Shown: positions 11,641 to 49,698 of the stretch, piece by piece
Numbering within the stretch: the first letter of the stretch is position 1
Layout: every line of letters begins with the position of its first letter
Origin: an uncultured Gammaproteobacteria bacterium
GTDB lineage: Bacteria; Patescibacteriota; Patescibacteriia; UBA1558; UBA10009
Direction of reading: 5' to 3'
Length of the DNA: 64,000 bases
Assembly (NCBI GenBank): GCA_964588165.1
Contig: CAZPMS010000003.1
Span: 74,031-138,030, forward strand
The notes under the pieces: generated by a model
Databases searched by the model: none
Seen by the model: the letters and a program-made list of their open reading frames with translations, nothing else
What the model was told of the DNA's origin: nothing
Made by a program: the position numbers and the translations under genes

Positions 11641-11932
11641 GATGTAATAATAAACCAACAAAATATTGATGTCAATTTAAATCAAAAAAAGGCGGATTTA
11701 TTAGAAAATAGATAATGTAATTAGTAATAATCTTGACAAAATTTGTAATCAAGTCTAAGATACGGCAAGTAAAAAAATGTATGTCCTTTTAAAAAATTTT
11801 AACAGTAGATATTTGGAAATTATAAACTATAAATTTTGAATATCTGCTGTTAAATTAGCAGAAAACAGAAAGTTGTCAGGCAAGAAGTCTGGCGTAAAAC
11901 AAATCTTTCTAACTCATTTGGGAGGATGTACC

Positions 11933-12658
11933 ATGAAGACCGCAACTACTATATTTATGTTATTGATCCTTCTGTTTTTCATCTCTGGGTCTATCGCTTT
12001 GGGACAAGTTTCAATTACAATTACTCCTCATGATCCGCCAGTTACAATCCCAAACGAGGGAGGCGATATCTACTACGACATATTGGTTATAAACAATACA
12101 GCAAACGAAGTTCAGGGTGATGTTTGGACCGCAATCGGTTTTCCGGGCGGTGGCTCTGACTCGCCTGTCGCACGGTGGCTAGGTTACTCAATTGATCCCT
12201 ACGACTCCCTCGGCTTTACAGACTGCCTGTTAGTTATACCCGGCAGCGCCCCAACCGGATGGTACACCTACCGCGCTAATGTTGGTCAGTTAACTGCTCC
12301 TCCCACAGTTGTAGACTATGACCAGTTTCAGTTTTTAAAACTAGGTCCTTTCGGACCTTCCGACATCTTAGGGCAGAAATTTTCGCTACCAACCGAGTTT
12401 GGCCTAGTGAACATCTTCCCCAATCCGTTCAACGCGCAAGCAACAGTTGAGATCTCGCTACCGAGTGAATCTGAGTTAACGCTGAACGTCTACAATTTAC
12501 AAGGACGTTTGGTGGCAACTTTAGCCGAGGAATCATACCCGGCCGGTGAACACCAATTCAGCTTTAATGCCAGCCGTCTGGCCAGTGGCATGTACATCAT
12601 CCACGCACAGGTTCCTGGACAGCTAAGCGCAACCCAGCGAGTTACCTTGCTGAAATAG
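11933..12658 (+). CDS. Secreted protein with signal peptide and a C-terminal T9SS/Por-secretion-type sorting domain (CTD); GC content about 50%, atypical for this window
   Basis: ATG at 11933, preceded by ggagg. Signal peptide MKTATTIFMLLILLFFISGSIALG. C-terminus LVNIFPNPFNAQATVEISLPSESELTLNVYNLQGRLVATLAEESYPAGEHQFSFNASRLASGMYIIHAQV...RVTLLK, which fits the TIGR04183-like pattern. Confidence 0.7.
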   Translation: MKTATTIFMLLILLFFISGSIALGQVSITITPHDPPVTIPNEGGDIYYDILVINNTANEVQGDVWTAIGFPGGGSDSPVARWLGYSIDPYDSLGFTDCLLVIPGSAPTGWYTYRANVGQLTAPPTVVDYDQFQFLKLGPFGPSDILGQKFSLPTEFGLVNIFPNPFNAQATVEISLPSESELTLNVYNLQGRLVATLAEESYPAGEHQFSFNASRLASGMYIIHAQVPGQLSATQRVTLLK

Positions 12659-23951: not shown

Positions 23952-24452
23952 TTAGTCATTTTCGCTAGCGGACTCGTTCTTTTTTATTCTTAATAAAAGC
24001 TGCTGGATATTCCGAGGTTTAGGGATCTTACTAACAATAATTGGAGTTTTAGTTTCAGCTATCTGGAGCCTAACAGAGCCATATCTAAATACTGTTTGCC
24101 CGGCACCTTTAATCCGATAAGAAATATCCTGGATTGTTCCATGCTCTGCCTCCGAAACCCTTTTATTAAATAATCCAAACTGCCTGCTTAAAATTACCCT
24201 GTGGCTGGTTATTAAAAAAACATTATTGCTCCACATAACAATTAATCTAACTACAGCGATTATTCCAACAACTAAAAGTATAAAAAATAAAACCAAGCCT
24301 ATTACTTCCCACTTAAATAATAAAAACATTAAAAAGAAAGGTAGCAACAATAAAATGATTGATACTAAACCGGACTTTAAAAATACCAACGGATGTTGCC
24401 TGATTAACCTGATTGGCTCTTCATTATTTTTTAAATATTTGCTATACTTCAT
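23952..24452 (-). CDS. Membrane protein with bacterial PH (YdbT/DUF304-like) domain
   Basis: Two TM helices followed by a PH-like segment (NVFLITSHRVILSRQFGLFNKRVSEAEHGTIQDISYR). Confidence 0.45.
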   Translation of the reverse strand: MKYSKYLKNNEEPIRLIRQHPLVFLKSGLVSIILLLLPFFLMFLLFKWEVIGLVLFFILLVVGIIAVVRLIVMWSNNVFLITSHRVILSRQFGLFNKRVSEAEHGTIQDISYRIKGAGQTVFRYGSVRLQIAETKTPIIVSKIPKPRNIQQLLLRIKKNESASEND

Positions 24453-24766
24453 AAAGTTAAACTAATTTTAAGCTAAGAAGAAAAGCCTGTACTATGTCCG
24501 TTCTTGTCGGTGTCGTCCGCGTGAGTCGGTGAAAGTCTATTTACGGTCTTACGCGGACAATTACTGACGGCACGGTCAGGCGCTGACCCACACAGACAAT
24601 TTATTTTCAAAATATGAGAAGAAAAACAATTAAAATTATTTGGATATTCTTAAGTGTCTTTATTATCTTTTCCATGCTTGTCTGGACACTTGGAGCTTTC
24701 TATTATTAATTTTACAGGATTACTTGATTTTAAAAAACTGAGGATAAGTATCATCAGTTTTTTTAA

Positions 24767-25498
24767 TTATAATAATTCAATAATACTTCTGGGAACTTCA
24801 ATATCTAATTTTCTAACAATCTTAATATACTCTTTCAACTTTTTTTTATTTTCAATCCAACTTTCTGGGTGATTCAAATAATCAATATAGTATTCATATA
24901 ATTTATCGGGGATAGCGTCATTTTTATGAATACCTTCAACTAATTCTAACCAAGTGTATAAATAATGAATCTTAATACCTTCTTTCTTGAGCCAAATTCT
25001 GGCGGGATCGTTTTGAAAAAATTCAGCCATAGCAGCCCAAATTACAAGTAAATCATTAACTTTGATTTTACATTTCTTAAGATTCTCAACCATTAATTTC
25101 TTAGTTTTACCATTAGCCATTAAATCATCAACTAGCAAAGCAGTCATGCCAGGTTTATAATCCCCTTCAATATAATCCATTTTACCTGTTTTTTTAGGTT
25201 CTTTTCTAATATAACAAAAAGGTATATCTAATTCATATCCTAAGGCAGCGGCTAAGGGAATGCCAGCTGTCTCAATACCGCAAATTATATCAAAATTTAA
25301 ATCTTTAATTTTTTCGGATAGAAATTTTACTACTAACTTAAAAGCCACTGGATGAGAATATAAAACTCTGTTATCAGCTCCCATTGGAATAATACCTACC
25401 GAAACTAATCTTGGCTTGTAATTATTATGGAAACTTTCAGCGAATTTAGCACACTCTTTAAAAATTTCTTCCTTATAATTCATAAAAGCTTTTATCAA
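24767..25498 (-). CDS. Orotate phosphoribosyltransferase-like protein, paralog 1 (most canonical PRPP loop)
   Basis: YIRKEPKKTGKMDYIEG (OPRT YxRKExKxxG...IEG motif) and PRPP-binding LLVDDLMANGKT; extra about 80-aa C-terminal extension. Confidence 0.65.
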   Translation of the reverse strand: MIKAFMNYKEEIFKECAKFAESFHNNYKPRLVSVGIIPMGADNRVLYSHPVAFKLVVKFLSEKIKDLNFDIICGIETAGIPLAAALGYELDIPFCYIRKEPKKTGKMDYIEGDYKPGMTALLVDDLMANGKTKKLMVENLKKCKIKVNDLLVIWAAMAEFFQNDPARIWLKKEGIKIHYLYTWLELVEGIHKNDAIPDKLYEYYIDYLNHPESWIENKKKLKEYIKIVRKLDIEVPRSIIELL

Positions 25499-26183
25499 AA
25501 ATTAAATTCTTTTCCTTAAAGGCTAATTCCTTGAAACGTTTCCTATTTTCTAAAACACCTGTCCAGTTTGAATGGAAATTCTTAATCATTTCCAATGTTA
25601 TATCTGTAAACCCTTGGCTCCAAAATCCGGTTTTGCCATAATATTCAATAATTTCGGCCCAACTCAAAACATAGCAATAACCCAATTCTTTAAGCCACTT
25701 AATTTTTTCTTCAAAAACAGGATCGCCACCTAAAGCATTTAAAAAAACGGCCACGCCAACTACTTCGTGCCCTAACTTTTGCACCGCCTCAACAGTATTT
25801 TTTTTGCTTTTAGAACTTGAAGTTGCATCATCAATAATTAAAACCTTACTATTTTTAGGAATTTCCCCTTCCAGTTGCTTGCCAAGCTGCATATCTTTAA
25901 CCTCGCCTCGCATATAGCCCATGCCTATATTTAGTTCTTCGGCTACACCGTGGGCCCAAACAATGCCGGCAGTAGCCAAGCCAACAACAAAGTTGGGTTG
26001 CCAACCTGCACTTTTTACCTCATCAACTAAGGCCTTAATGATTAATCTTCTTTTCTTGGGATAAGAATAAAGTGCCCTAAGATCAGGATACAAAACTCCA
26101 TTTATACCAGCTCTGGTTTTAAAATCACCAACATACTGGAATGTCGGGTACAATAATTCTTTTAAAATTTTATCTTTTTCCAT
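25473..26183 (-). CDS. OPRT-like phosphoribosyltransferase-fold protein, paralog 2 (degenerate PRPP loop VLIIDDATSSSKS)
   Basis: Type I PRTase fold pattern with a non-canonical loop; overlaps paralog 1 by 26 nt. Confidence 0.55.
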   Translation of the reverse strand: MEKDKILKELLYPTFQYVGDFKTRAGINGVLYPDLRALYSYPKKRRLIIKALVDEVKSAGWQPNFVVGLATAGIVWAHGVAEELNIGMGYMRGEVKDMQLGKQLEGEIPKNSKVLIIDDATSSSKSKKNTVEAVQKLGHEVVGVAVFLNALGGDPVFEEKIKWLKELGYCYVLSWAEIIEYYGKTGFWSQGFTDITLEMIKNFHSNWTGVLENRKRFKELAFKEKNLIFDKSFYEL

Positions 26184-26185
26184 AA

Positions 26186-26965
26186 TTAAAATTTTATCCC
26201 GTCGGGCAATTCATGATACTTGCCCACTGTTTTTGAATCTTCTACCAGCATTTCCCAAGTTAATGATTCATTTTCTATAGGCCAGCCATCTTTTTTTGCA
26301 ACTTCTAAAACTTTCATGAATTTTTCTTTATTAATAGACCAGCGTTCTATATTATAATCAGCATAACCATCCCAAACTAAATTATATAACTCTTTAGAAA
26401 TATAGCCGACCTTTAAAGCATAATGGAAAAATTCTTCTATTAGCATTACTTGATGATGTCCAATATTATTTTCTTGGTACCAAGGAACTAAAGGATGGCC
26501 AGTATAATAAATAACTACCATATCGGTAACTTTTATACCTTCCTTTTCCAGATGTTCGGCAAATTTATTTTTGCCTTCGCCGGCACCGGTAGCGTCATCA
26601 ATTAAAATGGCTTTCTTCCAGGATTTATTGACCTGCCCCATTACAGCCGACTTTACTCCATAACCTTTTACTTCTTTCCTTAAGTATAGAATCGGCTTAT
26701 CCATTTCTAAAGAAACTGCTGTGGCCACCGGAAAGCCGCCTAACTCACAGCCAGCCAAAAGATCTACATCCAATTGGTTAACTATATAAGCAATCTTTTG
26801 AGCTATCAGTTTAATTGATAAAGGTTCAGAAAATAACCATCTGGTTTCCGGATAAAAAGGCACTGCTCCTAAGGCTGCAATTAAATAGCCAAACTTAAGT
26901 ATTTTTTTATCTATCATTAACTGAAAAACTTCCTCCTTGTCTTTTTGTGAAATATCAACTGCCAT
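26186..26965 (-). CDS. OPRT-like phosphoribosyltransferase-fold protein, paralog 3 (degenerate PRPP loop ILIDDATGAGEG)
   Basis: YLRKEVKGYGVKSAVMG and hydrophobic-DDA-T-G pattern; immediately downstream of the kinase-like gene. Confidence 0.55.
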   Translation of the reverse strand: MAVDISQKDKEEVFQLMIDKKILKFGYLIAALGAVPFYPETRWLFSEPLSIKLIAQKIAYIVNQLDVDLLAGCELGGFPVATAVSLEMDKPILYLRKEVKGYGVKSAVMGQVNKSWKKAILIDDATGAGEGKNKFAEHLEKEGIKVTDMVVIYYTGHPLVPWYQENNIGHHQVMLIEEFFHYALKVGYISKELYNLVWDGYADYNIERWSINKEKFMKVLEVAKKDGWPIENESLTWEMLVEDSKTVGKYHELPDGIKF

Positions 26966-26967
26966 AA

Positions 26968-27978
26968 TTATTTAATTAATTCTTTATTGTTTAACAAATC
27001 TTTACCTAAATTCCTGACTTTTTCTTCCACTTCCTTATCCTTAACATACGAACCGTGCTTGCCGTCTACTCTGGATAAAAGGTAAATTCCCAGCCACTTA
27101 TTTGACCTTTTAATTATACCGCCCAGATGATCTGCTGAATCACTCACATGCCCAAGCCAAACCTTTTTATATTCTTCTATAAAATCATCAATAAACTTTT
27201 TTGACCCTTGTTTGATATCATCATCAGCTTCTTGCGACTTAATAAACCAGTGAGAAAGAAATATTCCTAAATCTATAGCCGGATCTAAGTGCAGGCAAAA
27301 TTCAAAATCTATTAACCTAAAATCGTTTTTACTCACAAAAATATTCCGATGAACCGGATCTATCCAAATTAATGAAGGATTAGTAAGATAGCTTTCCTTA
27401 ACAATCTTTTTTATAACTTCTTCAGGAAAATGTTTTCTTGCACCCCAGGTTAAATGTAATGGAATATAATAAGTTTCCATTAACTCCCTTTCAGCAGTTG
27501 AAAGGTCTTCATCTATTTTATAAGTTCTGGCATGAAACCTGCCAAAGAATTCACCAAACTGTTTAGCTAAATTGGCATGCAAATTATTTTTTTCCAATTC
27601 ATCTACTAAACATTTTCTATCTTGTTCAACATCAGACATTATTAGAACAAAATTTTCCTTATCTAAATAAAATATCTCTGGAACAAAATTTTCTCCAATC
27701 CATTCCTTAATTTTTTCCAGAACTTTAGCTTCAGTAATAATTCTTTCTAAAGGCATTTCAATATCTTCATCTTCCCTCTTTATCTGGCTTAAAACCTGTT
27801 TTAAAACTAATTTATTTATCCCAGAATCTGATTCAATTTCTACAGCAAAAACATAACTAACATTGCCTCCGGAAAGCTCTTTTATTTTTTTTATCTTATT
27901 GATTTTAAAAGACAGATGTTTCTTAACATCTTCTAAATAATCCTTAATATTTTCTAAATATAAGACTTTTTGTACCAT
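26968..27978 (-). CDS. Protein kinase-like (APH/ChoK/MtnK fold) small-molecule kinase homolog with non-canonical catalytic loop
   Basis: N-terminal ELSGGNVSYVFAV (MtnK-like GxGNxNxVFxV). Catalytic region VHRNIFVSKNDFRLIDFEF: the D of HGD is apparently replaced (HRN), while a DFE/DFG-like segment is retained. Confidence 0.5.
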   Translation of the reverse strand: MVQKVLYLENIKDYLEDVKKHLSFKINKIKKIKELSGGNVSYVFAVEIESDSGINKLVLKQVLSQIKREDEDIEMPLERIITEAKVLEKIKEWIGENFVPEIFYLDKENFVLIMSDVEQDRKCLVDELEKNNLHANLAKQFGEFFGRFHARTYKIDEDLSTAERELMETYYIPLHLTWGARKHFPEEVIKKIVKESYLTNPSLIWIDPVHRNIFVSKNDFRLIDFEFCLHLDPAIDLGIFLSHWFIKSQEADDDIKQGSKKFIDDFIEEYKKVWLGHVSDSADHLGGIIKRSNKWLGIYLLSRVDGKHGSYVKDKEVEEKVRNLGKDLLNNKELIK

Positions 27979-28063
27979 TATCCATATCTTAACCCATTTT
28001 TAACAAAAAGAAAAACCGCGATCCGTAATGGTCGCGGCTATATTGATCATTGTCCAAAAGTAA

Positions 28064-28630
28064 TCAAGCGGATAAATTTGTCGCCCAAATTACTGCCTGT
28101 TTGGCATCTTCAAGAGAAAAAAATCGAATATTATCACTGTTGGTGTTTCTTATAAGGGTTTTGAAAGATAATTCCTCCAAATAACCCCAACCAACAATGG
28201 CAACTCTGACTGTTTGCTTCTTGGAAGCAAAGGCCAAAAACGGAAATAGATGAGCCAGCGTACCCATTTCTCCCGGAAAAAAAATGACTCCGTCGGCAGT
28301 GTCAACCAATGAGCCCAAGCGACTACCCCATGAATATGCAGGGTACCCCTCATGATATGTGCTGATAGAATGGCCATGGCTTGGAATTTTTCCCTTATCA
28401 CTCTTACAGAAATAGCTAACAACTTTCGCGCCTGACTGATGTGCCAATTCAACGATATTGCCGTGCGAGCCGGTTAAAACTTTAACTTTATTTTGCCGGC
28501 ACCACTCAAACACTTTCTTAAGCATGTCTGCTTCTGAATTGGAGGTTTTAGCACTGCCTTGAAAAAAGATTCCCTTTTTCACGAGATTCTCCTTTACTCT
28601 ATAGAGCTTTGCGTTGTTTTTAAATTTCAA
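28064..28630 (-). CDS. LOG/SLOG-family Rossmann protein (TIGR00730-like; putative nucleotide 5'-monophosphate nucleosidase)
   Basis: 188 aa. FFPGEMGTLAHLF resembles the LOG PGGxGTxxEL motif. Assignment is tentative. Confidence 0.45.
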   Translation of the reverse strand: MKFKNNAKLYRVKENLVKKGIFFQGSAKTSNSEADMLKKVFEWCRQNKVKVLTGSHGNIVELAHQSGAKVVSYFCKSDKGKIPSHGHSISTYHEGYPAYSWGSRLGSLVDTADGVIFFPGEMGTLAHLFPFLAFASKKQTVRVAIVGWGYLEELSFKTLIRNTNSDNIRFFSLEDAKQAVIWATNLSA

Positions 28631-28703
28631 GAATAAATCATCATATCATATTTACAAAATTTTGTCAATATTAAAACAGAGTTCATATTCTCTGTTAAAT
28701 TTT

Positions 28704-29867
28704 TCATATTTTTCTAACAATACCTTTATTTGCATCAACCTCAACTAAATCTCCATCTTTCAAAACTTCAGTGGCTATTTTAGTTCCAACAATACAAGGG
28801 ATCTTTAATTCTCTGGAAATTACTGCGGCATGAGATAAGACACCACCGGTATTAGTTATAATGGCTCCACTCTTTCTAATGGCTGGCATATAATCAAGCG
28901 AAGTGCTAACTGTAACAATCACCTGGCCTTTTTTCATTTTTTTTATCTCATTATTAAAGGCTCTGCCCACATGATGAGGAATAATCTTAACTTTACCTTT
29001 AACATTGCCAGGAAAAGTAGTTTTGCCTCTAATTAAATTTAATTTGGGATTATTTTTAACTTTTGGCTTGGGTTTAGTAATTTTAATATTAAAATTACTT
29101 TTATTATAGACAAATTTATAATAATTTATTCTTTTATTTACTTTATTAATATCGGGTAATATATTTTTTAATAATAAATTACTTACCTCACTATATGTGC
29201 AATTTACAATTTGTAAATAATTTAATGAATTTCTTTTAGCAATTTCTCTATAAATCTTTCTGGCTTTTAAAAATGAATTTAACCATATTTTGTGCATTCG
29301 CAATCTTTCTTCTCCAATTTCTATAATTTTTAAAAATGTATTTTTGATGTCTGAATTTAAATTAAAATTTAATTTATCAAAATTTTTACTCAAAATATAT
29401 TCTATATTTTTATTTTTTGGTGCTGGGAAATCTTTTGCCAATTTTTTTAGCGCTAATTCATAATTCTCTGGTCGTATACATCTATATATTCCAAGTAAAC
29501 TAGAATAGTTATTATAAAATCTTGAATAATAATTAAATAATTCTTTATTATTTGTCTTCTTAAAATTTAATTTATCAATTTTTCGAATAAATTTAATATT
29601 CTGTTCTTTTATTTTTTTGATGTTCTTTGTAAAATCATTTAGAAGTTTTAAATTTGAATATATTTTTTCTCCCTTCTTGGCTACATACTTTTTTGTCTTA
29701 ATATCCATAAAAAAAGTAACTTTTTGATTTTCAGAAATAAAATAATGATTATTAAAACTATGGGCTAAAATTTCGCCTCTCTTTACAACATCACCAAACC
29801 AAACCATTTCAACCATGGTAAGAGGTAGATCTTCCATAGTCCATGTTTTTTCATATTTTTTTGACAT
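28704..29867 (-). CDS. Protein with C-terminal PEP-utilizing-enzyme mobile (phosphohistidine swivel) domain and uncharacterised N-terminal domain
   Basis: C-terminus GGVLSHAAVISRELKIPCIVGTKIATEVLKDGDLVEVDANKGIVRKI. No ATP-grasp and no PEP-binding TIM barrel is present. Confidence 0.65.
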   Translation of the reverse strand: MSKKYEKTWTMEDLPLTMVEMVWFGDVVKRGEILAHSFNNHYFISENQKVTFFMDIKTKKYVAKKGEKIYSNLKLLNDFTKNIKKIKEQNIKFIRKIDKLNFKKTNNKELFNYYSRFYNNYSSLLGIYRCIRPENYELALKKLAKDFPAPKNKNIEYILSKNFDKLNFNLNSDIKNTFLKIIEIGEERLRMHKIWLNSFLKARKIYREIAKRNSLNYLQIVNCTYSEVSNLLLKNILPDINKVNKRINYYKFVYNKSNFNIKITKPKPKVKNNPKLNLIRGKTTFPGNVKGKVKIIPHHVGRAFNNEIKKMKKGQVIVTVSTSLDYMPAIRKSGAIITNTGGVLSHAAVISRELKIPCIVGTKIATEVLKDGDLVEVDANKGIVRKI

Positions 29868-29873
29868 ATAATT

Positions 29874-31643
29874 CTATCTTTTTAAAACTGCCATAAAGGC
29901 TTCTTGAGGAATGTCCACCTTAGCGCCTTTCATCATCTTCTTTTTACCTTTTTTCTGTTTTTCTAACAGTTTGCGCTTTCTGGTTACATCACCGCCGTAC
30001 AGATTAGCGGTAACATCTTTTCTTAAAGCAGAAAGGCGTTCAGCAGCAATAACTTTTCCACCAAGAGCTGCCTGAATTTTTAACGGAAACTGCTGTTTTG
30101 GTAAAACCTCTTTTAATGACTTAACGATCTTCTTGCCGGTGTTAAAAGCAGTATCACGATAGACAATTGTAGCCAAAGCTTCTACCGGCTCTTCGGCAAC
30201 TAAAATATCCATCCTAACCACATCTGCCAGCCTATATTCTAAAAATTCATAATTAAGTGAAGCATAGCCAGAAGAAACAGTTTTTAATATATCGTAAAAA
30301 TCCACAAGGATTGATGCTAAGGGGATTTCATAATGTAAAATTACTCTGTTTTGATCTAAGTATTCGGTATTTTTATATTCACCTCTTTTATCCTGAACCA
30401 GCTTCATAATTTCACCAATATAATCTTTGGGCGTTATAACATCTATGGTTACAAAAGGCTCTTTAATTTCTTCTATATAATTTTGGTCTGGAAGTTCTTG
30501 CGGGCTATGGATGGTAACTTCTTCCCCTGATGACTGCTTTACTTTATAAGCAACTGATGGGGTGGTTATTACCAAGTCTAAATCATATTCCCTACTTAGC
30601 CTTTCTTGGAAAATTTCTAAATGAAGCAGGCCTAAAAAGCCGCATCTAAAACCAAACCCCAAAGCCGGTGAATTTTCCGGTTCATAAAATAAGGATGAAT
30701 CACTAAGTTTAAGTTTTTCTATGGCTTCCCTTAATTTTTGATATTCATCCCCCTCCTTGCAAAAAATACCGGCATAAACCATGGGCTTTACTTCTTTATA
30801 GCCGGCCAATGACTCTGCCGGATCTTTAGCCAATGTTATTGTATCGCCTACTCGGACATTTTCCAGATCTTTAAGGCCGGTAACAATATAACCGATTTCT
30901 CCGGCCGATAAGCTTTTTGATTTATGGTAAGCCGGATTAAAAAAACCGACTTCAAGTACTTCTGACTTGGTTCCGGTAGCATTAAAAAATATTTTATCGC
31001 CCGGCTTAACCTCACCATTTACTAGCCTGACATAAGCCACCACTCCTTTATATTCATCAAAAGTTGAATCAAAAATTAAAGCCTGAACTTTATCTTCTAC
31101 TTTGCCCGATGGATTTGCAGTTTGACTGATGATAGCTTTAAGGACTTCTTCTACATTATTTCCGGTTTTAGCAGAAACTTCTATAATTTCCTCTTCCCTG
31201 CAGCCAAGTAAGCTGACAACTTCTTTTTTTACCTTTTTTGGGTGTGCTGCTGGTAAATCAATCTTATTAATAACCGGAATTATGGTTAAGTCCTGATCCA
31301 AGGCTAAATATAAATTAGCCACTGTTTGAGCCTCTACCCCTTGGGTGGCATCAACCAATAAAACGGCTGATTCAACTGCGGCAAGCGACCTAGAAACTTC
31401 ATAGGTAAAATCTACATGTCCCGGAGTATCAATTAAGTTAAGTTGGTAACCTTGATATTCCATTCTAACTGGCTGAAGTTTAATGGTAATGCCTCGTTCT
31501 CTTTCTAAATCCATAGTATCTAAAACCTGGTCCTTCATTTTTCTTTTATCAACTGTATTGGTAATTTCCAAAAAACGGTCAGCTAAAGTTGACTTGCCGT
31601 GATCAATATGGGCGATGATACAAAAATTACGTATGTTTTCCAT
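29874..31643 (-). CDS. lepA: Elongation factor 4 (LepA)
   Basis: IRNFCIIAHIDHGKSTLADR G1 motif, DTPGHVDF, NKID; full-length LepA C-terminal domain. Confidence 0.9.
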   Translation of the reverse strand: MENIRNFCIIAHIDHGKSTLADRFLEITNTVDKRKMKDQVLDTMDLERERGITIKLQPVRMEYQGYQLNLIDTPGHVDFTYEVSRSLAAVESAVLLVDATQGVEAQTVANLYLALDQDLTIIPVINKIDLPAAHPKKVKKEVVSLLGCREEEIIEVSAKTGNNVEEVLKAIISQTANPSGKVEDKVQALIFDSTFDEYKGVVAYVRLVNGEVKPGDKIFFNATGTKSEVLEVGFFNPAYHKSKSLSAGEIGYIVTGLKDLENVRVGDTITLAKDPAESLAGYKEVKPMVYAGIFCKEGDEYQKLREAIEKLKLSDSSLFYEPENSPALGFGFRCGFLGLLHLEIFQERLSREYDLDLVITTPSVAYKVKQSSGEEVTIHSPQELPDQNYIEEIKEPFVTIDVITPKDYIGEIMKLVQDKRGEYKNTEYLDQNRVILHYEIPLASILVDFYDILKTVSSGYASLNYEFLEYRLADVVRMDILVAEEPVEALATIVYRDTAFNTGKKIVKSLKEVLPKQQFPLKIQAALGGKVIAAERLSALRKDVTANLYGGDVTRKRKLLEKQKKGKKKMMKGAKVDIPQEAFMAVLKR

Positions 31644-33341: not shown

Positions 33342-34262
33342 CTACCAAGTAATCCTTAAGTTAGTAGCCGATAGATAAGGATGCACACTACCTTCACCAT
33401 CAGCGATTTCCCAACCGAATACTACACCTTTATGACGTCCTCTAAAATCCTGCGGCCTGATAATAGACTTCCCCGGCCTGCTATAGCCTTTATCATCAAG
33501 ATAAACGGCATTGAACTTTTCATCATTTATATCATGGTAAACTCCAACCCCCCTCAACTGCATAAGAATTGTTTTGTAAAATCCTTCCAAAAGTGTTGAA
33601 GCTTTCCAGCCTTCTGGTAAAAGTTTTAGTTTGTTTTCCCAATGCATGGATCTTGTTGTAGAACCTTGTGAACCGGGAACACCATCCAGCCTAACCAAAT
33701 ACCAGCCCCGTTCAAGGAACGGCCAATCGGGTATGCCGAATAGCGCCTGGAAAAAATATTTTGATGTCTCTTTTTTAAAAAGTGACTTCACAATATCTTT
33801 TTCTATAGGTGGATTTTCCCAATCCAATCTTCCGGGTGAATAAAATAAAAAAGTATAGTGTCCTAAAGTCACGGATGACTTGTTATCTCCTTCGAAGGGT
33901 GATTCTTGATGAAGAAGATCCAAGATATTATCCGGGAGATGGGAATATATTTCCGCCAACTCCTCCTCGCTAAACCATAACCCAAAATATTGCGACCAGT
34001 GAAAGGGTAAAAAACAATTACGCTGTAAAAAATTCATCAGCTCATCTTCAATTTCTGGGGCTTTTTCTCCGCACCTGATTATAGCTTTGGCGATCTGATC
34101 AGCTGGGTAGTCAGTATGACCAACACCATCGCGGTTGCGAATGCTTTTTAAATGAAATGTTTTAACTCCGCGTCTCGCTAATTGTTCCAGTGTGGCATTC
34201 AACTCACTATTAGGGGTTTTTACAACACTTTCTACACTTGAAACACTTTTAGGCTCACTCAT
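33342..34262 (-). CDS. Hypothetical protein (about 307 aa from internal ATG preceded by aaggag SD); GC content about 45%, no recognised domain
   Basis: The track ORF 33342-34361 runs over its own predicted promoter. The MSEPKSVSS... start has a strong SD. Trp/Tyr-rich soluble protein. Confidence 0.45.
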   Translation of the reverse strand: MSEPKSVSSVESVVKTPNSELNATLEQLARRGVKTFHLKSIRNRDGVGHTDYPADQIAKAIIRCGEKAPEIEDELMNFLQRNCFLPFHWSQYFGLWFSEEELAEIYSHLPDNILDLLHQESPFEGDNKSSVTLGHYTFLFYSPGRLDWENPPIEKDIVKSLFKKETSKYFFQALFGIPDWPFLERGWYLVRLDGVPGSQGSTTRSMHWENKLKLLPEGWKASTLLEGFYKTILMQLRGVGVYHDINDEKFNAVYLDDKGYSRPGKSIIRPQDFRGRHKGVVFGWEIADGEGSVHPYLSATNLRITW

Positions 34263-34333
34263 GATGAGTTCTCCTTTTTCCTTGGTTGTTGGCTCTCCCT
34301 TTTTGGGCTCGCCGATGAAATGAACTAAACGTA

Positions 34334-34362
34334 CTTTATAAAAATTATTAACTTTTGTCAAA
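34334..34362 (-). promoter_or_regulatory. Predicted sigma70-like promoter (TTGACA-17-TAAAGT) for the 307-aa gene
   Basis: Minus-strand reading of 34334-34362: ttgacaaaagttaataatttttataaagt. Confidence 0.3.
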
Positions 34363-34502
34363 AACCAAAAAGCTGTGCCCTACTAGGCAATGTATAGGTT
34401 ATAAAATCTTGAGGAGAGAGATTTTCCTTGGAACAACACAGGGTTGCCAAAGAAAGATTTTATAGCCTAACATCTAGCAATGGGCACAGCTTTTTGGTTT
34501 TA
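34361..34502. repeat. Approximately 140-bp hairpin: 20-bp perfect inverted repeat enclosing a second imperfect inverted repeat. Candidate bidirectional terminator or MITE-like element.
   Basis: Outer arms aaaaaccaaaaagctgtgccc (34361-34381) and gggcacagctttttggtttt (34483-34502). Inner arms ggttataaaatctt and aagattttatagcc. Confidence 0.5.
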
Positions 34503-34518
34503 AGCTTTAGCTTAAAGA

Positions 34519-34740
34519 GCAAATATTGGAGGGCGAACCGGCCTGGTGGGCCAAAGGCCCACATTATGGCCGGCAGTGGCAATAAATTCCTGGAAAACCC
34601 GAGCTTACGCCAAGGTGATATATCTAGGTTTTACTGCCTTAAGCTCTCCTTTTTATTGAAAAAAATCGCTAATCGATTAATTTATAAGGTTAGCTCTCTC
34701 TCCCTCCAATATCTGCTCTTTTTTGCCTATTTTTCAAAGA
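34519..34740 (-). ncRNA. Candidate structured small RNA (about 220 nt to the closing stem; about 380 nt if it ends at the 34361-34502 hairpin) transcribed from its own promoter
   Basis: The 5' and 3' ends pair over 15 bp (gcagauauuggaggg with cccuccaauauuugc; the single G-U wobble only forms on the minus-strand transcript). Internal GC hairpin ccggcctggtgggccaaaggcccacattatggccgg (34539-34574). No coding potential on the minus strand. Confidence 0.3.
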
Positions 34741-34748
34741 ATATATTA

Positions 34749-34777
34749 GTATAGCATATATTTAATATCTTGTCAAG
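34749..34777 (-). promoter_or_regulatory. Predicted sigma70-like promoter (TTGACA-17-TATACT) driving the candidate ncRNA
   Basis: Minus-strand reading of 34749-34777: ttgacaagatattaaatatatgctatact. Nearly identical in layout to the promoter at 35424-35452. Confidence 0.35.
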
Positions 34778-34888
34778 CTTCTTTAAATTAAAAGAACTCT
34801 ACTATTTATTTTTAGTAAAGTCCCTTTGTGTTTGCTTAATTTTAAGCAAAATTTTAAGGGCACTCGTTACTTCTAATACAACTGCCTA

Positions 34889-35356
34889 CTACTGTTCACT
34901 ACAAAGCTCATTTAAGAGCGGTCTAATCTGCCATTCCAGCAATAGATTTAAGCCGTCTGGCAACCTCTCAATACTCCTTAGAGCAAGCCTGATATTTTCG
35001 ATAAGTTGTCTTCGAAACTTATCTTGTACTTCAGGAGAGCACTGGTTAAACAAATCAACCAGTTTACTCCATTTAACTACCAGTCTAGCCAGTTCCAGAG
35101 AGCCATCGGCCCTACCATCAGGACTTACTGATGAAGCATCTCGAATTGCATCGCCAAATTCGCCACTGAGCGGGTAGAAGCATAATTCTCTAAGCTGAAT
35201 TTCAGCCCGCCATGTTCTGTACCGTGCACGAATCCGACGATAGCGCTTTCCTGTTGATAAAGCCTTATCGAAAGATCTTCGAAAAGCCCAGACTGCATTC
35301 GTAAGCATAGCTCCTACCATAATGCCAAGTATGTCGCTAAGCAGTTCTGCATCCAT
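34889..35356 (-). CDS. Hypothetical protein (155 aa) with N-terminal TM helix and Arg-rich soluble part; GC about 48%
   Basis: ILGIMVGAMLTNAVWAF TM segment; no recognised domain. Confidence 0.4.
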   Translation of the reverse strand: MDAELLSDILGIMVGAMLTNAVWAFRRSFDKALSTGKRYRRIRARYRTWRAEIQLRELCFYPLSGEFGDAIRDASSVSPDGRADGSLELARLVVKWSKLVDLFNQCSPEVQDKFRRQLIENIRLALRSIERLPDGLNLLLEWQIRPLLNELCSEQ

Positions 35357-35423
35357 CTTCTTGCCCTTTCGTGTTGTTTACCTCCAACGTCTTGTTGGAA
35401 GCTATGAATGATCTTAATATAAC

Positions 35424-35452
35424 AATATAACATATATTTATTACTTTGTCAA
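35424..35452 (-). promoter_or_regulatory. Predicted sigma70-like promoter (TTGACA-17-TATATT) for the 155-aa gene
   Basis: Minus-strand reading: ttgacaaagtaataaatatatgttatatt. Shares an aagcTTGACAa-type motif with the 34749-34777 promoter. Confidence 0.35.
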
Positions 35453-35467
35453 GCTTACTTAACAATA

Positions 35468-35530
35468 TAAAAAAGCCTTACCTAAATGTACGAACGCGCC
35501 TCGGCGCGTTCCGACAAAATAGGAAAGGCT
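35468..35530 (-). terminator. Nested hairpin terminator downstream of the DUF4012 gene
   Basis: aaaagcctt...gaacgcgcctcggcgcgttc...aaggcttttt: perfect 9-bp inner stem and 9-bp outer stem. Confidence 0.45.
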
Positions 35531-39440: not shown

Positions 39441-39561
39441 TTTATTTTCTTAATTATACCTTTATTAGTCCCGATATAAAATCGGGACGTCGCGAGGTTA
39501 ATATTTATATTTTCCTTACGATGCCTCGCTCCGCATCAACTTCAACTAAATCACCGTCTTT
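39441..39561. repeat. Perfect direct repeat copy 1 (about 121 bp), spanning the 3' end and 3' flank of paralog A. Copy 2 is at 40921-41041.
   Basis: Copy 1 (39441-39561) and copy 2 (40921-41041) share the identical sequence tttattttcttaattatacctttattagtcccgatataaaatcgggacgtcgcgaggttaatatttatattttccttacgatgcctcgctccgcatcaacttcaactaaatcaccgtcttt. The flank contains the hairpin tcccgat-ataaa-atcggga. Confidence 0.9.
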
Positions 39562-40920
39562 TAAAATTTTTGTTACAGCTTTAACACCGATTATTGTCGG
39601 AATCTTCAGTTCTCTGGAAATTATAGAAGCATGAGATAATACCCCGCCCTCTTCGGTTATAACTGCCTTGACTTTTTTTAATACAGGCAAATAATTTGGC
39701 TGTGTTGAACTTGCCACTAAAATATTTCCAGTTTTAACTTTTTTAAAATCATCTGGGCCGTTTACAATCACAGCCGATCCGGAAGCCTTGCCTTTATATG
39801 CTGTTTGGCCTTTTATGATTTTATTATTTATAGTATAAAATTTAATCTTTTTTGCAATTTTTTTTGATTCCTTGCCTTCATAAATGGTGGATTGGCTAAA
39901 ATTAGTAATATAAATGAAAGATTCCTTTCTTCTCTTTAGTAAACTTTGATCCACTTTTTTATTTTCTTCTAATAAGCTTATTACCTCAAAGACTGTAAAA
40001 TTAAAAATTTCTTTATAATTTTTTATATTGATTCTCTTAGATATTTCCTTCAATAAATTCATTAAATAAATTCCCGAACGATAAAACTCCTCGCTGCGAA
40101 AACTTCTAAAATAAATGGATTCATTAATAGTTTTTATTAAATAGATTAAAGATTTTTTATTTTTGTATTTACCCAATATTTTATTAAATCTTTCTTTTTG
40201 CTTATTTTTCTCATTTTGCGCTTTGGAAAGACTTTTTTCAGGATCTAATTTAGCTTGTCTTTTTATTCTATTTAAATAATAGCTCCCATTATAATAATCG
40301 CCGTAGTAACCAGTGTCTTTAAGCCAAGAATAATTAAAAATATGCTTTTCTAAATCTTTCTCAATATTTTGATTATTCTTGAATTTAATAGAGATTTTTA
40401 ATAATGAAATTTTTTCATCTAATTCACGAGAATTTTTTACTGGTGACAAAATCGTGCTTAATTCATCGTTATTAACCTGCTTAATTATCTCGTCAGTTAT
40501 TTTATCCTCAACATAAAGAGGTAATAATGCGTAAGCGGCAAAATTTGTCATCCTACTGATAAAATCCTTAATTAGTCTTGATAGTTGTTTGTTAGAATAA
40601 CTACTATAATTTTTAATTTTATAAACTCCCTTTAAAAAAATAATTAATTGTTTATGCTCTTTATAACAATGTGATAGTTGCTGATAAAGGAAATTTGGAC
40701 TTTTTTTTAAATAATTCCATAATCTATTTTGCATTTCTTGCCAATCTTTTTTAGAAAAAACTACCTTATTATCAATCGCCCCAACATGCCTCATCCAGTA
40801 TTTAATATTTTCCATTTTTACTGATTGAATGGCAAAACTTCTAAAAACAACATGGACATACCATAAGCTCCTTTGTCTTGTATGTACATAATGCCAGTTT
40901 ATTTTAGACAGATCAATCAT
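39505..40920 (-). CDS. PEP-utilizing-enzyme swivel-domain protein (471 aa), tandem paralog A
   Basis: C-terminus ...EGGVLSHASIISRELKIPTIIGVKAVTKILKDGDLVEVDAERGIVRKI. The last 19 codons and the 64-bp 3' flank are identical to paralog B. Confidence 0.65.
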   Translation of the reverse strand: MIDLSKINWHYVHTRQRSLWYVHVVFRSFAIQSVKMENIKYWMRHVGAIDNKVVFSKKDWQEMQNRLWNYLKKSPNFLYQQLSHCYKEHKQLIIFLKGVYKIKNYSSYSNKQLSRLIKDFISRMTNFAAYALLPLYVEDKITDEIIKQVNNDELSTILSPVKNSRELDEKISLLKISIKFKNNQNIEKDLEKHIFNYSWLKDTGYYGDYYNGSYYLNRIKRQAKLDPEKSLSKAQNEKNKQKERFNKILGKYKNKKSLIYLIKTINESIYFRSFRSEEFYRSGIYLMNLLKEISKRINIKNYKEIFNFTVFEVISLLEENKKVDQSLLKRRKESFIYITNFSQSTIYEGKESKKIAKKIKFYTINNKIIKGQTAYKGKASGSAVIVNGPDDFKKVKTGNILVASSTQPNYLPVLKKVKAVITEEGGVLSHASIISRELKIPTIIGVKAVTKILKDGDLVEVDAERGIVRKI

Positions 40921-41041
40921 TTTATTTTCTTAATTATACCTTTATTAGTCCCGATATAAAATCGGGACGTCGCGAGGTTAATATTTATATTTTCCTTACG
41001 ATGCCTCGCTCCGCATCAACTTCAACTAAATCACCGTCTTT
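40921..41041. repeat. Perfect direct repeat copy 2 (see 39441-39561)
   Basis: Identical to 39441-39561 on direct reading of both lines. Confidence 0.9.
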
Positions 41042-42436
41042 GAAAACTTTGGTGGCAACTAAAGTATTTACAACACAAGGCTTGCCTAATTCTCTGGAAA
41101 CTATAGCAGCATGGCAAGTAATGCCACCAACTTCCGTAACCACAGCCACTGATTTTTTCATAGCGGTAACAAAATCAACAGATGTAGAGGGAACCACTAA
41201 CACTTCGCCATCTTTCATTTTAGATAATTCAGAGATGCTGCTTATTACTCTGGCCTTGCCTTTAGCTTTACCAGGAGAAGCACCTAAGCCGCAAAGTTCT
41301 TTTTTATTACCTAATGATACTTTTGGCTTATCTTTTAAACATTCTTGATTAATCTTAGAGTGCAAATTTTTAGCCTGCTTGCCGGTGATTATCTTTTGTT
41401 TGTCTAAATTTATAACTTGAACAGCAAACGACTGCCTTTCTTTAATAATTTTTTTAAAATTACTATTACTGATTTTACCTACAAGGCCTTTCCTGATTTC
41501 CTGGGGTGTTAAGAATTTAAGCTCACTAAAAGTAACTTTAAATTCCTCAGCGATTCTTTCATAAATAGGCTTGGCTTTATGAACAATATAACTGGTATGC
41601 AAATCCACTCTGGTTCTGATTAAAGTAAAATATCTTAACATATTAATATCTTTAAGTAATCTACCTGAAAGGCTAAGCTCTTTTATGGTTTTTTTATTTA
41701 ATAACTTTGTCTTATTTGAATAATTTTTTATGTCAGACATCCTTTTTTTAATATCTTTAGCCTTTAGTTCTTGGTTTAGTCTAAACATTAGATCTTCCAT
41801 TTCCCACGGTTCATTGTCATACCATACAGGAATCCATTCAAATTTCTTAAGATGTTTTTTGAATATTGGTTTTATATCATCAATTAAGCCACCTTTAAAC
41901 TTGCTGACAATTTCTAAAAAATTAAGCTCTTCTTTTTGCGTTTCTAAAAATTCCCAAGGCGTGGTTACAGCAATCAATTTGTTAGTAAACTGCTCTTCCT
42001 TTCTTTGTTTCTTTAAAATATCTTTAAACTTTTTACTAATTCTTTCTAAATATATTTCATCAATGGCATGATTAATATCACCAATTGGTTCAGCTAAAAA
42101 CAATAGGTTCCAATATTTGTTAAATGATTTTAAAAGTTTTGCCCGATTAATATTTTTGATATCGGCTAAATTATTATTAAGAAATTTATTAAGATTTCTA
42201 AAATTCTTTTCATGATTTTGGCCGTATCTTTTGATATAATATGGATCTTTATCAATTCTAGTCCACCAAATTTTATGCATCCTCTTATAATCAGAAGTAT
42301 AAGTATAATAATGAGCCAATAAATCCTTATGTACTCTAATTACTCTCTTAAAAACCACTTCTCGCCTGTCCCAATAATAAAGGCTGTAATGAAGTATGCT
42401 GATAGACCATGATCCAAACTTATGATATTTTGACAT
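40985..42436 (-). CDS. PEP-utilizing-enzyme swivel-domain protein (483 aa), tandem paralog B
   Basis: C-terminus ...GGITCHAAIVSRELGKPCVVNTLVATKVFKDGDLVEVDAERGIVRKI. Confidence 0.65.
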   Translation of the reverse strand: MSKYHKFGSWSISILHYSLYYWDRREVVFKRVIRVHKDLLAHYYTYTSDYKRMHKIWWTRIDKDPYYIKRYGQNHEKNFRNLNKFLNNNLADIKNINRAKLLKSFNKYWNLLFLAEPIGDINHAIDEIYLERISKKFKDILKKQRKEEQFTNKLIAVTTPWEFLETQKEELNFLEIVSKFKGGLIDDIKPIFKKHLKKFEWIPVWYDNEPWEMEDLMFRLNQELKAKDIKKRMSDIKNYSNKTKLLNKKTIKELSLSGRLLKDINMLRYFTLIRTRVDLHTSYIVHKAKPIYERIAEEFKVTFSELKFLTPQEIRKGLVGKISNSNFKKIIKERQSFAVQVINLDKQKIITGKQAKNLHSKINQECLKDKPKVSLGNKKELCGLGASPGKAKGKARVISSISELSKMKDGEVLVVPSTSVDFVTAMKKSVAVVTEVGGITCHAAIVSRELGKPCVVNTLVATKVFKDGDLVEVDAERGIVRKI

Positions 42437-47079: not shown

Positions 47080-47497
47080 CTCATTCAAATTTAGATGATC
47101 GCCCCGACGTTACCCTTATCGGGTAAGCCGGGGAGGAAAGTCCGAACACCAAGGTTTCCCGCTCTTAAGTGGGAGGATAATTGGTAACACCAACCGTTTG
47201 ATCTGTGAGGATTAAATAGGACAAGTGCAACAGAAAATATTTCTATTTGTGGGCCAAAGAGTATACTCTCCGCAAATTAAGAGTGAAAAGGTCAGATGAT
47301 TAGCTGACCCGTTCCTATAGTGATATAGGAAAAGAGGTAAACTTCTATCCGGTGCAATCCCAAATTTGGTAGGGAGCATGATCCCGACGGCAACGTCGGG
47401 GCTAGATAGATGATCATCCTTCGACTCACTTGAGTTCGCTCAGGACAAGTCGTAGACAGAATTCGGCTTATTAATTTGAGTGGGCAATAAAAAACCG
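47080..47497 (+). ncRNA. rnpB: RNase P RNA (bacterial type A-like)
   Basis: P4 5' strand gggAGGAAAGTCCGaacacc and P4 3' strand ACAGAAttCGGCTTAtt. P1 pairing is gctcattcaaatt with aatttgagtgggc. P3-like hairpin gttaccc-ttatc-gggtaa. Followed by an intrinsic terminator. Confidence 0.8.
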
Positions 47498-48684: not shown

Positions 48685-49698
48685 TTATTTGGCAAATAAA
48701 ATGCTTCTTTTATAAGACTCAAGGTTATCCAAAGCTACGCCCGTGCCCTTGGCCACACATAATAAAGATTCGTCAGCTACATACGCCGGCACGCCGGTAA
48801 CCTGCGAAAGCAAGTTATCCATATTCCTTAAAAGCGAACTGCCGCCGGTTAAAACCATGCCTTTATCCATAACATCAGCAGAAAGTTCTGGCGGAGTTTT
48901 AAATAAAACTGACTTCACAGCTGAAATTACGCCCTGAAGTTCATTTTGCAGGGCCTCTGTAACATCATCAGAATTTACTTCAATAGTTCTAGGTAATCCG
49001 GAAATCATATCCCGCCCCCTAATATTCATTTTAAACTTTTCTTCATCATCCAAATACATGGCTGAACCTATTTTAATTTTAATTTCCTCAGCTGTGCCTT
49101 CGCCAATTGCCAAACCATACTTTTTACGGATGAATTCAGCTATTGCAGCATCAAACTTGGTGCCGCCAATCCTGATAGAAGTATTGGCCACAATTCCGCC
49201 TAAAGAAATAACAGCGATTTCTGATGTGCCACCGCCCATATCCACCACCATATGCCCGGAAGCAGAACCAATAGGGATGTTTGCTCCAATAGCGGCAGCA
49301 ATAGGCTCTTTAATAATATAAGCGGCCCTGGCACCGGCTGCTACCGTAGCATCTATTACAGCCCTTCTTTCTGTAGAAGTAATTCCGGCCGGTACAGCAA
49401 TCATTACCTCTGGCCTAAATAATTTTGCTCCGCCTACCGCTTTATTAATAAAATACCTTAACATGCTTTCGGTAGTTTTATAATCGGCAATTACTCCATC
49501 TCTTAAAGGACGTTTGGCTACAATTGTATCTGGTGTTCTCCCTAACATTTCCTTTGCTTCATCGCCCACAGCTAAAACCTTCTTATCTAAAGAAGAAATA
49601 GCTACCACCGAAGGTTCATTAATTATAATTCCCCTTTTGGGAATATGAACCAAGGTATAAGTAGTGCCTAAATCTATGCCGATCTTTTTATTAAACAT
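48685..49698 (-). CDS. mreB: Rod shape-determining actin homolog MreB (paralog 1)
   Basis: [29 protein letters not shown] and [16 protein letters not shown] actin-fold motifs. Confidence 0.9.

Follow-up and report, generated by a model that had tools for sequence, protein, structure and literature searches.

A putative operon of a LOG-fold protein, an MtnK-like kinase and three OPRT-derived phosphoribosyltransferases in a Patescibacteria chromosome: a candidate ribose/nucleobase salvage module

Patescibacteria (the candidate phyla radiation, CPR) have genomes of roughly 1 Mb and are generally without de novo nucleotide synthesis, and what is said of their nucleotide acquisition comes largely from patchy annotation. 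What could such an organism do with three phosphoribosyltransferase (PRT) genes in tandem, next to a kinase gene? These genes lie at 24767-29867 of a stretch of 64,000 nucleotides (nt) from contig CAZPMS010000003.1, which is the whole DNA that was analysed and is called the window here. An earlier reading of the letters, the original prediction, took six genes for one operon with a phosphoenolpyruvate (PEP)-swivel protein, a LOG-like protein, a degenerate kinase and three PRTs similar to orotate phosphoribosyltransferase (OPRT), and supposed either base/ribose-phosphate salvage or a nucleotide-depleting defence module.

Our analysis suggests that the operon most likely consists of the genes for a LOG-fold protein, an MtnK-like kinase and three OPRT-derived PRTs, with its own putative promoter, and that it is chromosomal and vertically inherited. 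We hold with moderate confidence that it would be a ribose/nucleobase salvage module. The PRT/kinase/LOG cluster does exist, and its arrangement, as predicted, appears to be undescribed in the searchable full-text literature. The folds are each known; new are the combination, the radiation of OPRT paralogs, the His-variant LOG family and this branch of MtnK.

The cluster and its conservation

The open reading frame (ORF) list of the window has six ORFs at 24767-29867, all on the minus strand, co-directional and tightly packed, just as had been described. The window has a low GC content (~34%) and is a Patescibacteria-like chromosome segment. It carries genes of RpoA, AlaRS, MnmA, FtsEX, DivIC, LepA, MurJ, two MreB, PBP2, RseP and RecJ, as well as RNase P RNA and a large glycosyltransferase cluster; family scans of this wider window were made on its 30 larger ORFs. 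The operon is flanked by lepA/murJ on one side and by cell-division genes on the other.

The kinase, PRT3, PRT2 and PRT1 genes follow each other in this order with a spacing of 2 nt or with overlap. The LOG-fold gene stands before them, and the gap between it and the swivel gene is 73 nt. Directly after the swivel stop codon comes a terminator-like hairpin (28675..28696, minus strand; 7-bp stem, 8-nt loop, T-rich tail), and immediately next a promoter-like site (28640..28668, minus strand; TTGACA-17-TATGAT with TG extension), which had the top score, 11/12, within 24300-30100. The hairpin is putatively the end of an upstream lepA/swivel unit, and the promoter-like site, a consensus match only, is the proposed start of the operon. 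A local hidden Markov model built from the paralogs gave no further PRT in the 64-kb window.

The neighbourhood comparison rests on about 13 loci, which were anchored by the kinase (L001), by PRT3 (L090, L092-L095 and L097-L100) or by the LOG-fold protein (L101-L104); a metagenome scan with the PRT3 profile gave 6 loci only. The gene order in L001 is LepA, LOG-fold protein, kinase, PRT3, PRT2, PRT1, a fourth PRT, a canonical LOG and a fragment of a fifth PRT, with identities to the window of 79% (LepA), 53% (kinase), 75% (PRT3), 44% (PRT2) and 62% (PRT1). Another PRT2 ortholog is L094_7701 (30% identity). The same kinase family is present in all PRT3-anchored loci, from three genes upstream to three genes downstream (L093) of PRT3, and the LOG-fold protein is present in them where the contig allows, often on the opposite strand. 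As for the LOG-fold-anchored loci, L101 has the kinase, L102 and L103 have the kinase and PRTs, and L104 has a PRT3-like gene. No clear PRT3-type gene was seen in L102 and L103; in L102 a PRT2-type gene has a comparable loop, DDAISRGGGK. The conserved unit consists of the LOG-fold protein, the kinase and PRT3 as its core, and of one to five further OPRT-like paralogs. Across the CPR genomes this LOG-fold/kinase/PRT core recurs, and the swivel gene does not, being absent from L001 and from every other related locus read.

The number of PRTs per locus is 2-6, with six in a row in L094, and single linkage at 36% identity separates at least 8 paralog groups. An ortholog in another genome is far closer than a paralog in the same genome, so the duplications must be old and maintained, which indicates a probably ancient, maintained specialisation of the paralogs. 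PRT3 is the most conserved gene of the cluster: it is 75% identical between two genomes whose LepA is 79% identical, and thus seems to evolve about as slowly as LepA. Its identity to homologs in Patescibacteria is 46-76%, including 46-52% for records named Parcubacteria, Patescibacteria or Ca. Kerfeldbacteria, and its identity to PRT1 is about 29%. In public annotation these homologs are "hypothetical" or "orotate phosphoribosyltransferase". The cluster is under strong purifying selection, and every source naming an organism is Patescibacteria.

This setting bears on the idea of an anti-phage or conflict module which would deplete or modify nucleotides, and which we consider extremely unlikely. 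Some conflict systems do contain PRTase and SLOG domains (PMC7824862). Against this, none of the six proteins matched any PADLOC-DB 2.0 family at E<=1, and the genes stand in a housekeeping setting from lepA/murJ to cell-division genes, with synteny held in a relative whose LepA is 79% identical. There is no integrase, toxin, sensor or nuclease nearby and no mobile-element feature among the scanned ORFs of the window; the loci with a named source are all Patescibacteria, and the ortholog relationships are consistent with vertical inheritance. The defence proposal is therefore not borne out.

Two side observations concern the related loci. The fifth PRT of L001 (L001:6103-6447) has 114 amino acids (aa) and stops before the phosphoribosyl pyrophosphate (PRPP) loop though the contig runs on; it may be a frameshifted or decaying copy. 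Directly upstream of the kinase in three loci (L092:7483-8142, L098:2391-3050, L100:7475-8134) there is a 219-aa protein made of four repeats of ~50 residues (W..M..EL..Y......W..FA..A..M..IDP.RF). It has no family match, and it was ruled out as a member of the cluster families, since it matches none of them.

Enzymes encoded by the operon

Type I PRTs move the 5-phosphoribosyl group of PRPP onto a nitrogenous base. PRT1 (24767..25483, minus strand) has 238 aa from ATG 25483, its most likely start; PRT2 (25473..26183, minus strand) has 236 aa; and PRT3 (26186..26965, minus strand), which starts 2 nt past the kinase stop codon, has 259 aa. All three are above the gathering score of Pfam Pribosyltran (49.2, 46.7 and 30.7 bits for PRT1, PRT2 and PRT3). 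Their best NCBIfam matches are OPRT models below the equivalog cut-offs: 105.4, 77.2 and 59.0 bits to NF001729 (cut-off 245 bits), and 68.5, 58.7 and 75.4 bits to TIGR00336 (cut-off 106.8 bits). All 35 paralogs match three OPRT models; no other family is matched by as many of them or with E-values as low. Yet all 35 are far below the NCBIfam OPRT cut-offs (best E 1e-30, roughly 105 bits by comparison with PRT1). It means that the PRTs are not ordinary pyrE, apt or hpt products, as the original prediction had supposed.

It could still be argued that the genes are ordinary pyrE, apt, hpt and mtnK, divergent-looking through a fast-evolving lineage. We regard this as very unlikely. The best family matches are indeed OPRT models and MTRK, and PRT3 homologs carry the OPRT name in public records. 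But the scores are far below the cut-offs (105 and 77 vs 245, 75 vs 106.8, and for the kinase 77.6 vs 275 bits), and they cannot be put down to divergence alone, since LepA of these genomes is easily recognised, at 79% identity. There are also 3-6 tandem PRT copies where one is expected, and the 30 larger ORFs of the window include no pyr gene, mtnA or mtnN. In a sequence alignment no Arg of the PRTs appears to match Arg156 of E. coli PyrE, an orotate-binding residue in E. coli or Salmonella OPRT.

The PRPP loops that had been quoted (LLVDDLMANGKT in PRT1, IIDDATSSSKS in PRT2, and ILIDDATGAGEG) are all present, and two of them had been called degenerate. To take this as a sign of lost function does not agree with the alignments. 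Past the Asp-Asp pair the sequence departs from the classical pattern [LIVM][LIVM][ST][ST]G.[ST], and it does likewise in the OPRT of PDB entry 4ohc, whose PRPP loop, EDLTTDSRSK, is also non-canonical. The Asp-Asp pair itself is unchanged in all 35 paralogs, and the flexible-loop Arg is nearly invariant (RKEPK in PRT1, within RKEPKKTGK; RKEVK in PRT3; RGEVK in PRT2, with RGE instead of RKE). PRT3, with the oddest loop, is the most conserved, and it keeps a strict signature of RK.PK.YG, DDA[TS]GxGxGK, HPLxxW and HHQ. Strong conservation also rules out decaying pseudogenes.

C-terminal extensions of about 80 aa were predicted for the three PRTs, and they exist; as a novelty they do not stand, being common to long-form OPRTs (4ohc, NF001729). 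The alignment of PRT1 to the 236-aa OPRT of 4ohc reaches residue 214, the matches of all three PRTs to NF001729, a long-form model of 231 positions, run into its C-terminal helices, and an OPRT-type alignment of 30 sequences has a common C-terminal helix and a "P..W" motif.

The PRTs thus share with long-form OPRT (PyrE; NF001729; 4OHC) the type I fold, the G-x-E-x-A-G-I-P segment, the RK-x-x-K flexible loop, the acidic pair before the PRPP loop, and the C-terminal helical extension ending in "P..W". They differ from it in lying below the equivalog cut-offs, in having 3-6 tandem paralogs instead of one gene, and in the N-terminal base-binding hood motif F.L.SG..SP.Y.D, which appears to be diverged in every PRT group here (its SG..SP.Y.D part in PRT1, PRT2 and PRT3 of the window). 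PRT3 further differs by the Gly-rich DDATGxGxGK loop, HPLxxW and HHQ, and about 35 extra C-terminal residues. PRT1-3 are predicted to be catalytically intact PRTs of the OPRT lineage, with different N-terminal acceptor-side regions.

Another explanation is that some paralogs are non-catalytic partners, in hetero-oligomers with one working site, or sensors of PRPP or nucleotides like PurR and PyrR. OPRT is an obligate dimer in which the flexible loop closes over the active site of the neighbouring subunit, which would suit such a partnership. The PRT genes are translationally coupled or overlapping, PRT2 has RGE and not RKE in its flexible loop, and 16 of the 35 paralogs weakly match the PurR PRT domain. 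We nevertheless think it quite unlikely: the Asp-Asp pair and the loop Arg are kept as described, the Pfam scan of the six proteins gave no DNA- or RNA-binding domain, every paralog group is individually conserved across genomes, and PRT3, the most atypical paralog, is the most constrained.

The second component of the cluster is an MtnK-like kinase of APH fold (26968..27978, minus strand; 336 aa; Pfam APH 33.5 bits). Its best NCBIfam match is MTRK (TIGR01767; 77.6 bits, E = 9.9e-22, against a cut-off of 275), which is strong in the N-lobe only. MTRK was matched at E<=1e-3 by nine of ten kinase-family members, more than any other family and best by the window protein, and the PDB matches are MtnK (2olc) and PsiK (8zic). 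Methylthioribose (MTR) kinases have the motifs G-loop GXGNXN, HGD catalytic loop, IDXEF, which is an extended Mg-binding motif, RR motif and W-loop (PMC2194712). In our protein "IDFEF" matches IDXEF exactly, and the G-loop is kept in part (SGGNVS); Met takes the place of the W-loop Trp, the RR motif is not alignable, and the His-Gly of HGD is replaced (WID).

The suggestion of a degenerate kinase of altered chemistry, with HRN in place of HGD, came from a mis-registration. The catalytic loop is "WIDPVHRN" (xxDxxxxN), and "HRN" is its tail. In the PsiK alignment, "sliWIDpvhRNif" lies on "tlvMADlwsgNil", which gives D207 as the catalytic-loop Asp and N212 as the Asn at +5. The MtnK alignment as printed has slipped by one residue in this loop, and it is by our own re-registration, from the DxxxxN spacing and not from the MtnK alignment, that D207 would be the Asp of HGD. 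The protein-kinase-like set of beta3 Lys, alphaC Glu, catalytic-loop Asp, +5 Asn and DFG-equivalent Asp is present. K60, E83, D207, N212 and D224 are invariant among close homologs, and E83, D207, N212 and D224 also among ten homologs with identities of 28-53%, in which position 60 holds K or R. By these residues the kinase is predicted to be catalytically intact and not a pseudo-kinase.

Compared with MtnK and DrdK and their PsiK offshoot (TIGR01767; 2OLC, 8ZIC), the kinase has the same APH/protein-kinase-like fold and catalytic Asp, and its N-lobe matches MTRK positions 6-146, with a G-loop of ..GGN.SYVF, K-Q in strand beta3, and IDFEF for IDXEF. The differences are the lost His-Gly, with an invariant Asn five past the Asp as in APH and protein kinases; Met, Leu or Asp across the family at the W-loop Trp; and a conserved SR[VT]DGK where the RR motif is not alignable. 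The partners of MtnK and DrdK are MtnA/MtnB or DrdI/DrdA, whereas this kinase is partnered by PRTs. No isomerase or aldolase was seen near the kinase in 13 loci, where its neighbours are PRT and LOG-fold genes; a true MtnK was ruled out by the family cut-off and this genomic context.

The characterised sugar kinases of the MtnK family phosphorylate the anomeric O1 of MTR or 5-deoxyribose (PMC2194712; PMC6079011). Two changes, Met for the W-loop Trp and the absence of an RR motif, suggest that the 5-substituent is not methylthio, and we speculate that ribose 5-phosphate or ribose itself might be the substrate. Only five non-self matches of the kinase were found in a 5.8-billion-protein index. 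A GTDB scan with the kinase alignment, which covered species representatives without the lineage of the window, gave only Planctomycetota kinases of 22-30% identity; they were rejected as a different family because none is near PRTs.

The LOG-fold protein of the SLOG superfamily (28064..28582, minus strand) has 172 aa with a GTG start. The longest ORF reaches 28630, and the likely start is GTG 28582, which has an AAGGAG Shine-Dalgarno sequence 7 nt upstream and agrees with the called gene P0044. By sequence the LOG-like assignment did not pass the cut-offs: Lysine_decarbox (PF03641) gave 20.9 vs 27 bits and TIGR00730 17.9 vs 96.35 bits. Sub-threshold PF03641 matches were found in four of ten family members, the best E of the profile against PDB was 0.0095, and hhalign against the co-clustered canonical LOGs gave a probability of 50%. 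The fold held up. An AlphaFold2 model from a 30-sequence alignment has a mean predicted local distance difference test score (pLDDT) of 94.7, and the top 50 Foldseek matches in PDB are all LOG, PpnN or Moco-carrier proteins with template modelling (TM) scores of 0.69-0.76, the best being type-I LOG 5zbk (E=1.6e-7, TM 0.73). At the level of the modelled structure the LOG fold is confirmed.

LOG and PpnN hydrolyse nucleoside 5'-monophosphates to base and ribose 5-phosphate, with Arg99 and Glu122 as the catalytic pair of LOG (PMC4979012). The LOG-fold family keeps the PGxxGT phosphate-binding loop and an invariant Arg aligned with the catalytic Arg99 of CgLOG. At the catalytic Glu of PGGxGTxxE almost every member has His (PG.EGT.AH; FPGEMGTLAH in the window). 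Like LOG/PpnN (PF03641, TIGR00730), it therefore has a Rossmann-like fold (TM about 0.7), the G-x-G-T phosphate loop and the Arg99 equivalent; unlike them, it has N-terminal QGDR and GAYG in place of the GGS/GGGxxG motifs, and canonical LOG genes exist as separate genes within the same clusters. The family is rare: an exhaustive phmmer search of 1.84 billion proteins gave 33 representatives at E<=1e-3, and a word-indexed search found the protein itself only.

Predicted role

As a ribose/nucleobase salvage module the operon might work as follows. The LOG-fold protein would bind a nucleotide bearing ribose 5-phosphate and release or exchange its base. The kinase, which is closest to enzymes phosphorylating O1 of 5-substituted ribofuranoses, would phosphorylate a ribose-type sugar or ribosyl compound and feed the pool of phosphoribosyl donors; in relatives PfkB would join it in capturing ribose-type sugars as phosphates. 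Each OPRT-derived paralog would then join a different base-like acceptor to PRPP, giving a nucleoside 5'-monophosphate. Which substrates are used, which way the flux goes and how the paralogs divide the work is inferred, the last from divergent N-terminal "hood" regions around a constant catalytic core.

The accessory genes of related clusters look like ribose or nucleotide salvage genes, and it is because of these neighbours that the salvage role, already named in the original prediction, is the best supported one. PfkB was found in L090, L093 and L099, with sub-cut-off matches to ribokinase, nucleoside kinase and ribose-1-phosphate kinase models; canonical LOG (TIGR00730) is a separate gene in L001, L090, L099 and L102; L093 has NAPRTase above the cut-off, and L094 a NUDIX hydrolase. 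The kinase of L101, which is fused to a CobC-like nucleotide phosphatase domain, also counts among these salvage-type genes. Next to a divergent copy of the cluster (L103:1809-5376) there are a Vut_1 (PF02592) transporter, a gene of the F420_ligase family and a weak match to the 5'-nucleotidase NT5C. Vut_1 is presumably the family of YhhQ-type queuosine-precursor transporters.

Several points weigh against this role. The paralog groups, at least 8, outnumber the canonical salvageable bases, and an MtnK-like kinase is not required for classical base salvage. Being without the catalytic Glu, the LOG-fold protein may only bind its ligand. The operon of the window contains no base or nucleoside transporter, and no riboswitch or other regulatory RNA was found at E<=1 upstream of or within it which could hint at a ligand; an RNA search of nine related loci gave RNase P RNA and one tRNA only. 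The gene content considered here, too, is that of the 64-kb window and the related loci.

Some of the same observations would suit a cluster that makes a dedicated nucleoside-like metabolite, cofactor or signal. Here at least one PRT would attach ribose to an unusual heterocycle, and the product would pass to the kinase, phosphatase and LOG-fold protein for tailoring or recycling. Its analogues would be alpha-ribazole formation or the predicted Ter-associated PRTase/HAD module. The paralog groups are far more numerous than the canonical bases, glycan-biosynthesis genes are often near the related clusters, and F420_ligase and Vut_1 are neighbours in L103. In L101 (L101:147-1829) the kinase is fused to a C-terminal histidine-phosphatase domain with an RHS motif, whose best NCBIfam match is alpha-ribazole phosphatase CobC (TIGR03162, 1.8e-23), and the LOG-fold gene is directly next to it. 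There is also a precedent in multi-PRTase operons that are predicted to make nucleoside derivatives (PMC7824862, citing Anantharaman 2012).

We consider such a metabolite pathway possible but unlikely. No tailoring enzyme (ATP-grasp ligase, methyltransferase or HAD phosphatase, for example) belongs to the conserved core, and the number (2-6) and identity of the PRTs vary by locus, which fits a parallel panel better than a linear pathway. PfkB, LOG, NAPRTase and NUDIX are typical salvage enzymes. The sole Pfam match to a PRTase family of Ter type is weak (PRTase_2 in PRT2, 14.7 bits vs a cut-off of 28.8). The Ter-associated module itself (Anantharaman, Iyer and Aravind 2012, as summarised in PMC7824862) is alike in having more than one nucleobase PRTase per operon, predicted to act on nucleoside or nucleotide derivatives. 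As described there, its PRTases are Pfam PRTase_1/2/3, while the PRTs here are of OPRT lineage in a housekeeping and not a conflict setting, and neither the scanned window genes nor the called genes of related loci include the TerB/TerC/TerD/TelA, HAD or ATP-grasp of that module.

The salvage module may also be compared with the archaeal/CPR pentose-bisphosphate nucleoside pathway, with which it shares the theme of ribose-phosphate recycling in organisms that lack de novo nucleotide synthesis, and PfkB kinases adjoining the related clusters. Neither the window nor the loci read showed an AMP phosphorylase, ribose-1,5-bisphosphate (R15P) isomerase or RuBisCO, and the PfkB gene is absent from the window's own operon.

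A wider proposal is that the kinase, LOG-fold protein and PRT array form an unrecognised nucleotide economy of Patescibacteria. The MtnK-derived kinase would phosphorylate the anomeric position of ribose 5-phosphate or another 5-substituted ribose, giving a bisphosphate or donor intermediate outside the Prs route; the OPRT radiation would replace apt, hpt, upp and pyrE and also accept non-canonical or modified bases; and the His-variant LOG would do the release or exchange of bases, so that ultra-small symbionts could rebuild all nucleotides from scavenged host nucleotides. Taken as a whole this is doubtful, and we offer it as a speculation.

Flanking genes and meaning for Patescibacteria

The sixth ORF encodes a PEP-utilizers phosphohistidine "swivel" protein (28704..29867, minus strand; 387 aa) and starts 6 nt past the lepA stop codon. 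The predicted domain was right: aa 312-382 match PEP-utilizers (PF00391) with 77.3 bits vs a cut-off of 23.1, and the phospho-acceptor His motif GGVLSHAAVISRE aligns to GGRTSHAAIVSRE of PEP synthase 8a8e. The N-terminal 270 aa have no family match, and the AlphaFold2 model from a three-sequence alignment has a pLDDT of 47, with this part below 50. Two full-length paralogs of 471 and 483 aa lie in tandem on the minus strand at 39505-40920 and 40985-42436, inside a cluster that holds genes for GT4 glycosyltransferases and a Bac_transf gene. Their full-length identity to the protein is 32-33%, the last 30 residues being near-identical, and they share its architecture of a family-less helical N-domain and a C-terminal PEP-utilizers domain. 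The swivel gene is absent from relatives, is separated from the LOG-fold gene by terminator- and promoter-like sites and has paralogs elsewhere, and for these reasons it should be a neighbour and not a component, so its predicted membership in the operon or pathway does not hold.

The 30 scanned ORFs of the window include no PPDK_N ATP-grasp partner for the swivel proteins. In L099 a stand-alone PPDK_N ATP-grasp protein (L099:1278-2225; 315 aa, 327 bits) and a His_Phos_1 protein (L099:349-1062) lie ~6 kb from the cluster. Stand-alone PPDK_N proteins of this kind might supply the partner that stand-alone swivel-domain proteins lack in these genomes.

Just downstream of the operon is a membrane protein gene (23952-24452, minus strand), homologous to that of a bPH_2-domain protein (L100:12105-12692, minus strand; 27% identity, E=5e-19). 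The latter also flanks the cluster of this distant relative, in an orientation relative to it opposite to that of the window. RNase P RNA (47086-47482, plus strand) adjoins the Bac_transf/GT4 block with RecJ nearby, and the arrangement is repeated in two distant relatives (L090:18179-18686 and L099:15305-15696), ~3-5 kb from the PRT cluster, which suggests long-range synteny around it.

Other features of the window were also recorded. A 261-aa protein (11873-12658, plus strand) has a Por_Secre_tail domain (type IX secretion C-terminal sorting; E=2.8e-11), which would be unusual outside Bacteroidota. A Fic/DOC family protein (3297-4004, minus strand; 47 bits) has a Dus gene on one side and, on the other, a series of short ORFs, outside the scan, which extends to rpoA. 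The two MreB paralogs (48685-49698 and 53627-54670, minus strand; 442 and 459 bits) are on either side of a PBP2-type transpeptidase. At 33342-35500 a 339-aa ORF without family match is followed by overlapping ORFs on both strands, with a slightly higher GC of 0.38 and no Rfam match.

A minimal-genome lineage devotes 5-9 adjacent genes to this cluster, and this investment, together with a PRT3 about as slow as LepA, argues for an important function. Because public records list the genes as "hypothetical" or under the wrong name of "orotate phosphoribosyltransferase", a metabolic reconstruction would overlook or misinterpret them. Three sets of candidates come out of the cluster: a PRT panel with new acceptor specificities, a new branch of MtnK anomeric kinases, and LOG-fold proteins whose active site has changed from Glu to His. 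Should the paralogs serve different bases, one would have in them a ready-made toolbox for the enzymatic synthesis of nucleotide analogues, and the cluster could help to explain how Patescibacteria obtain their nucleotides.

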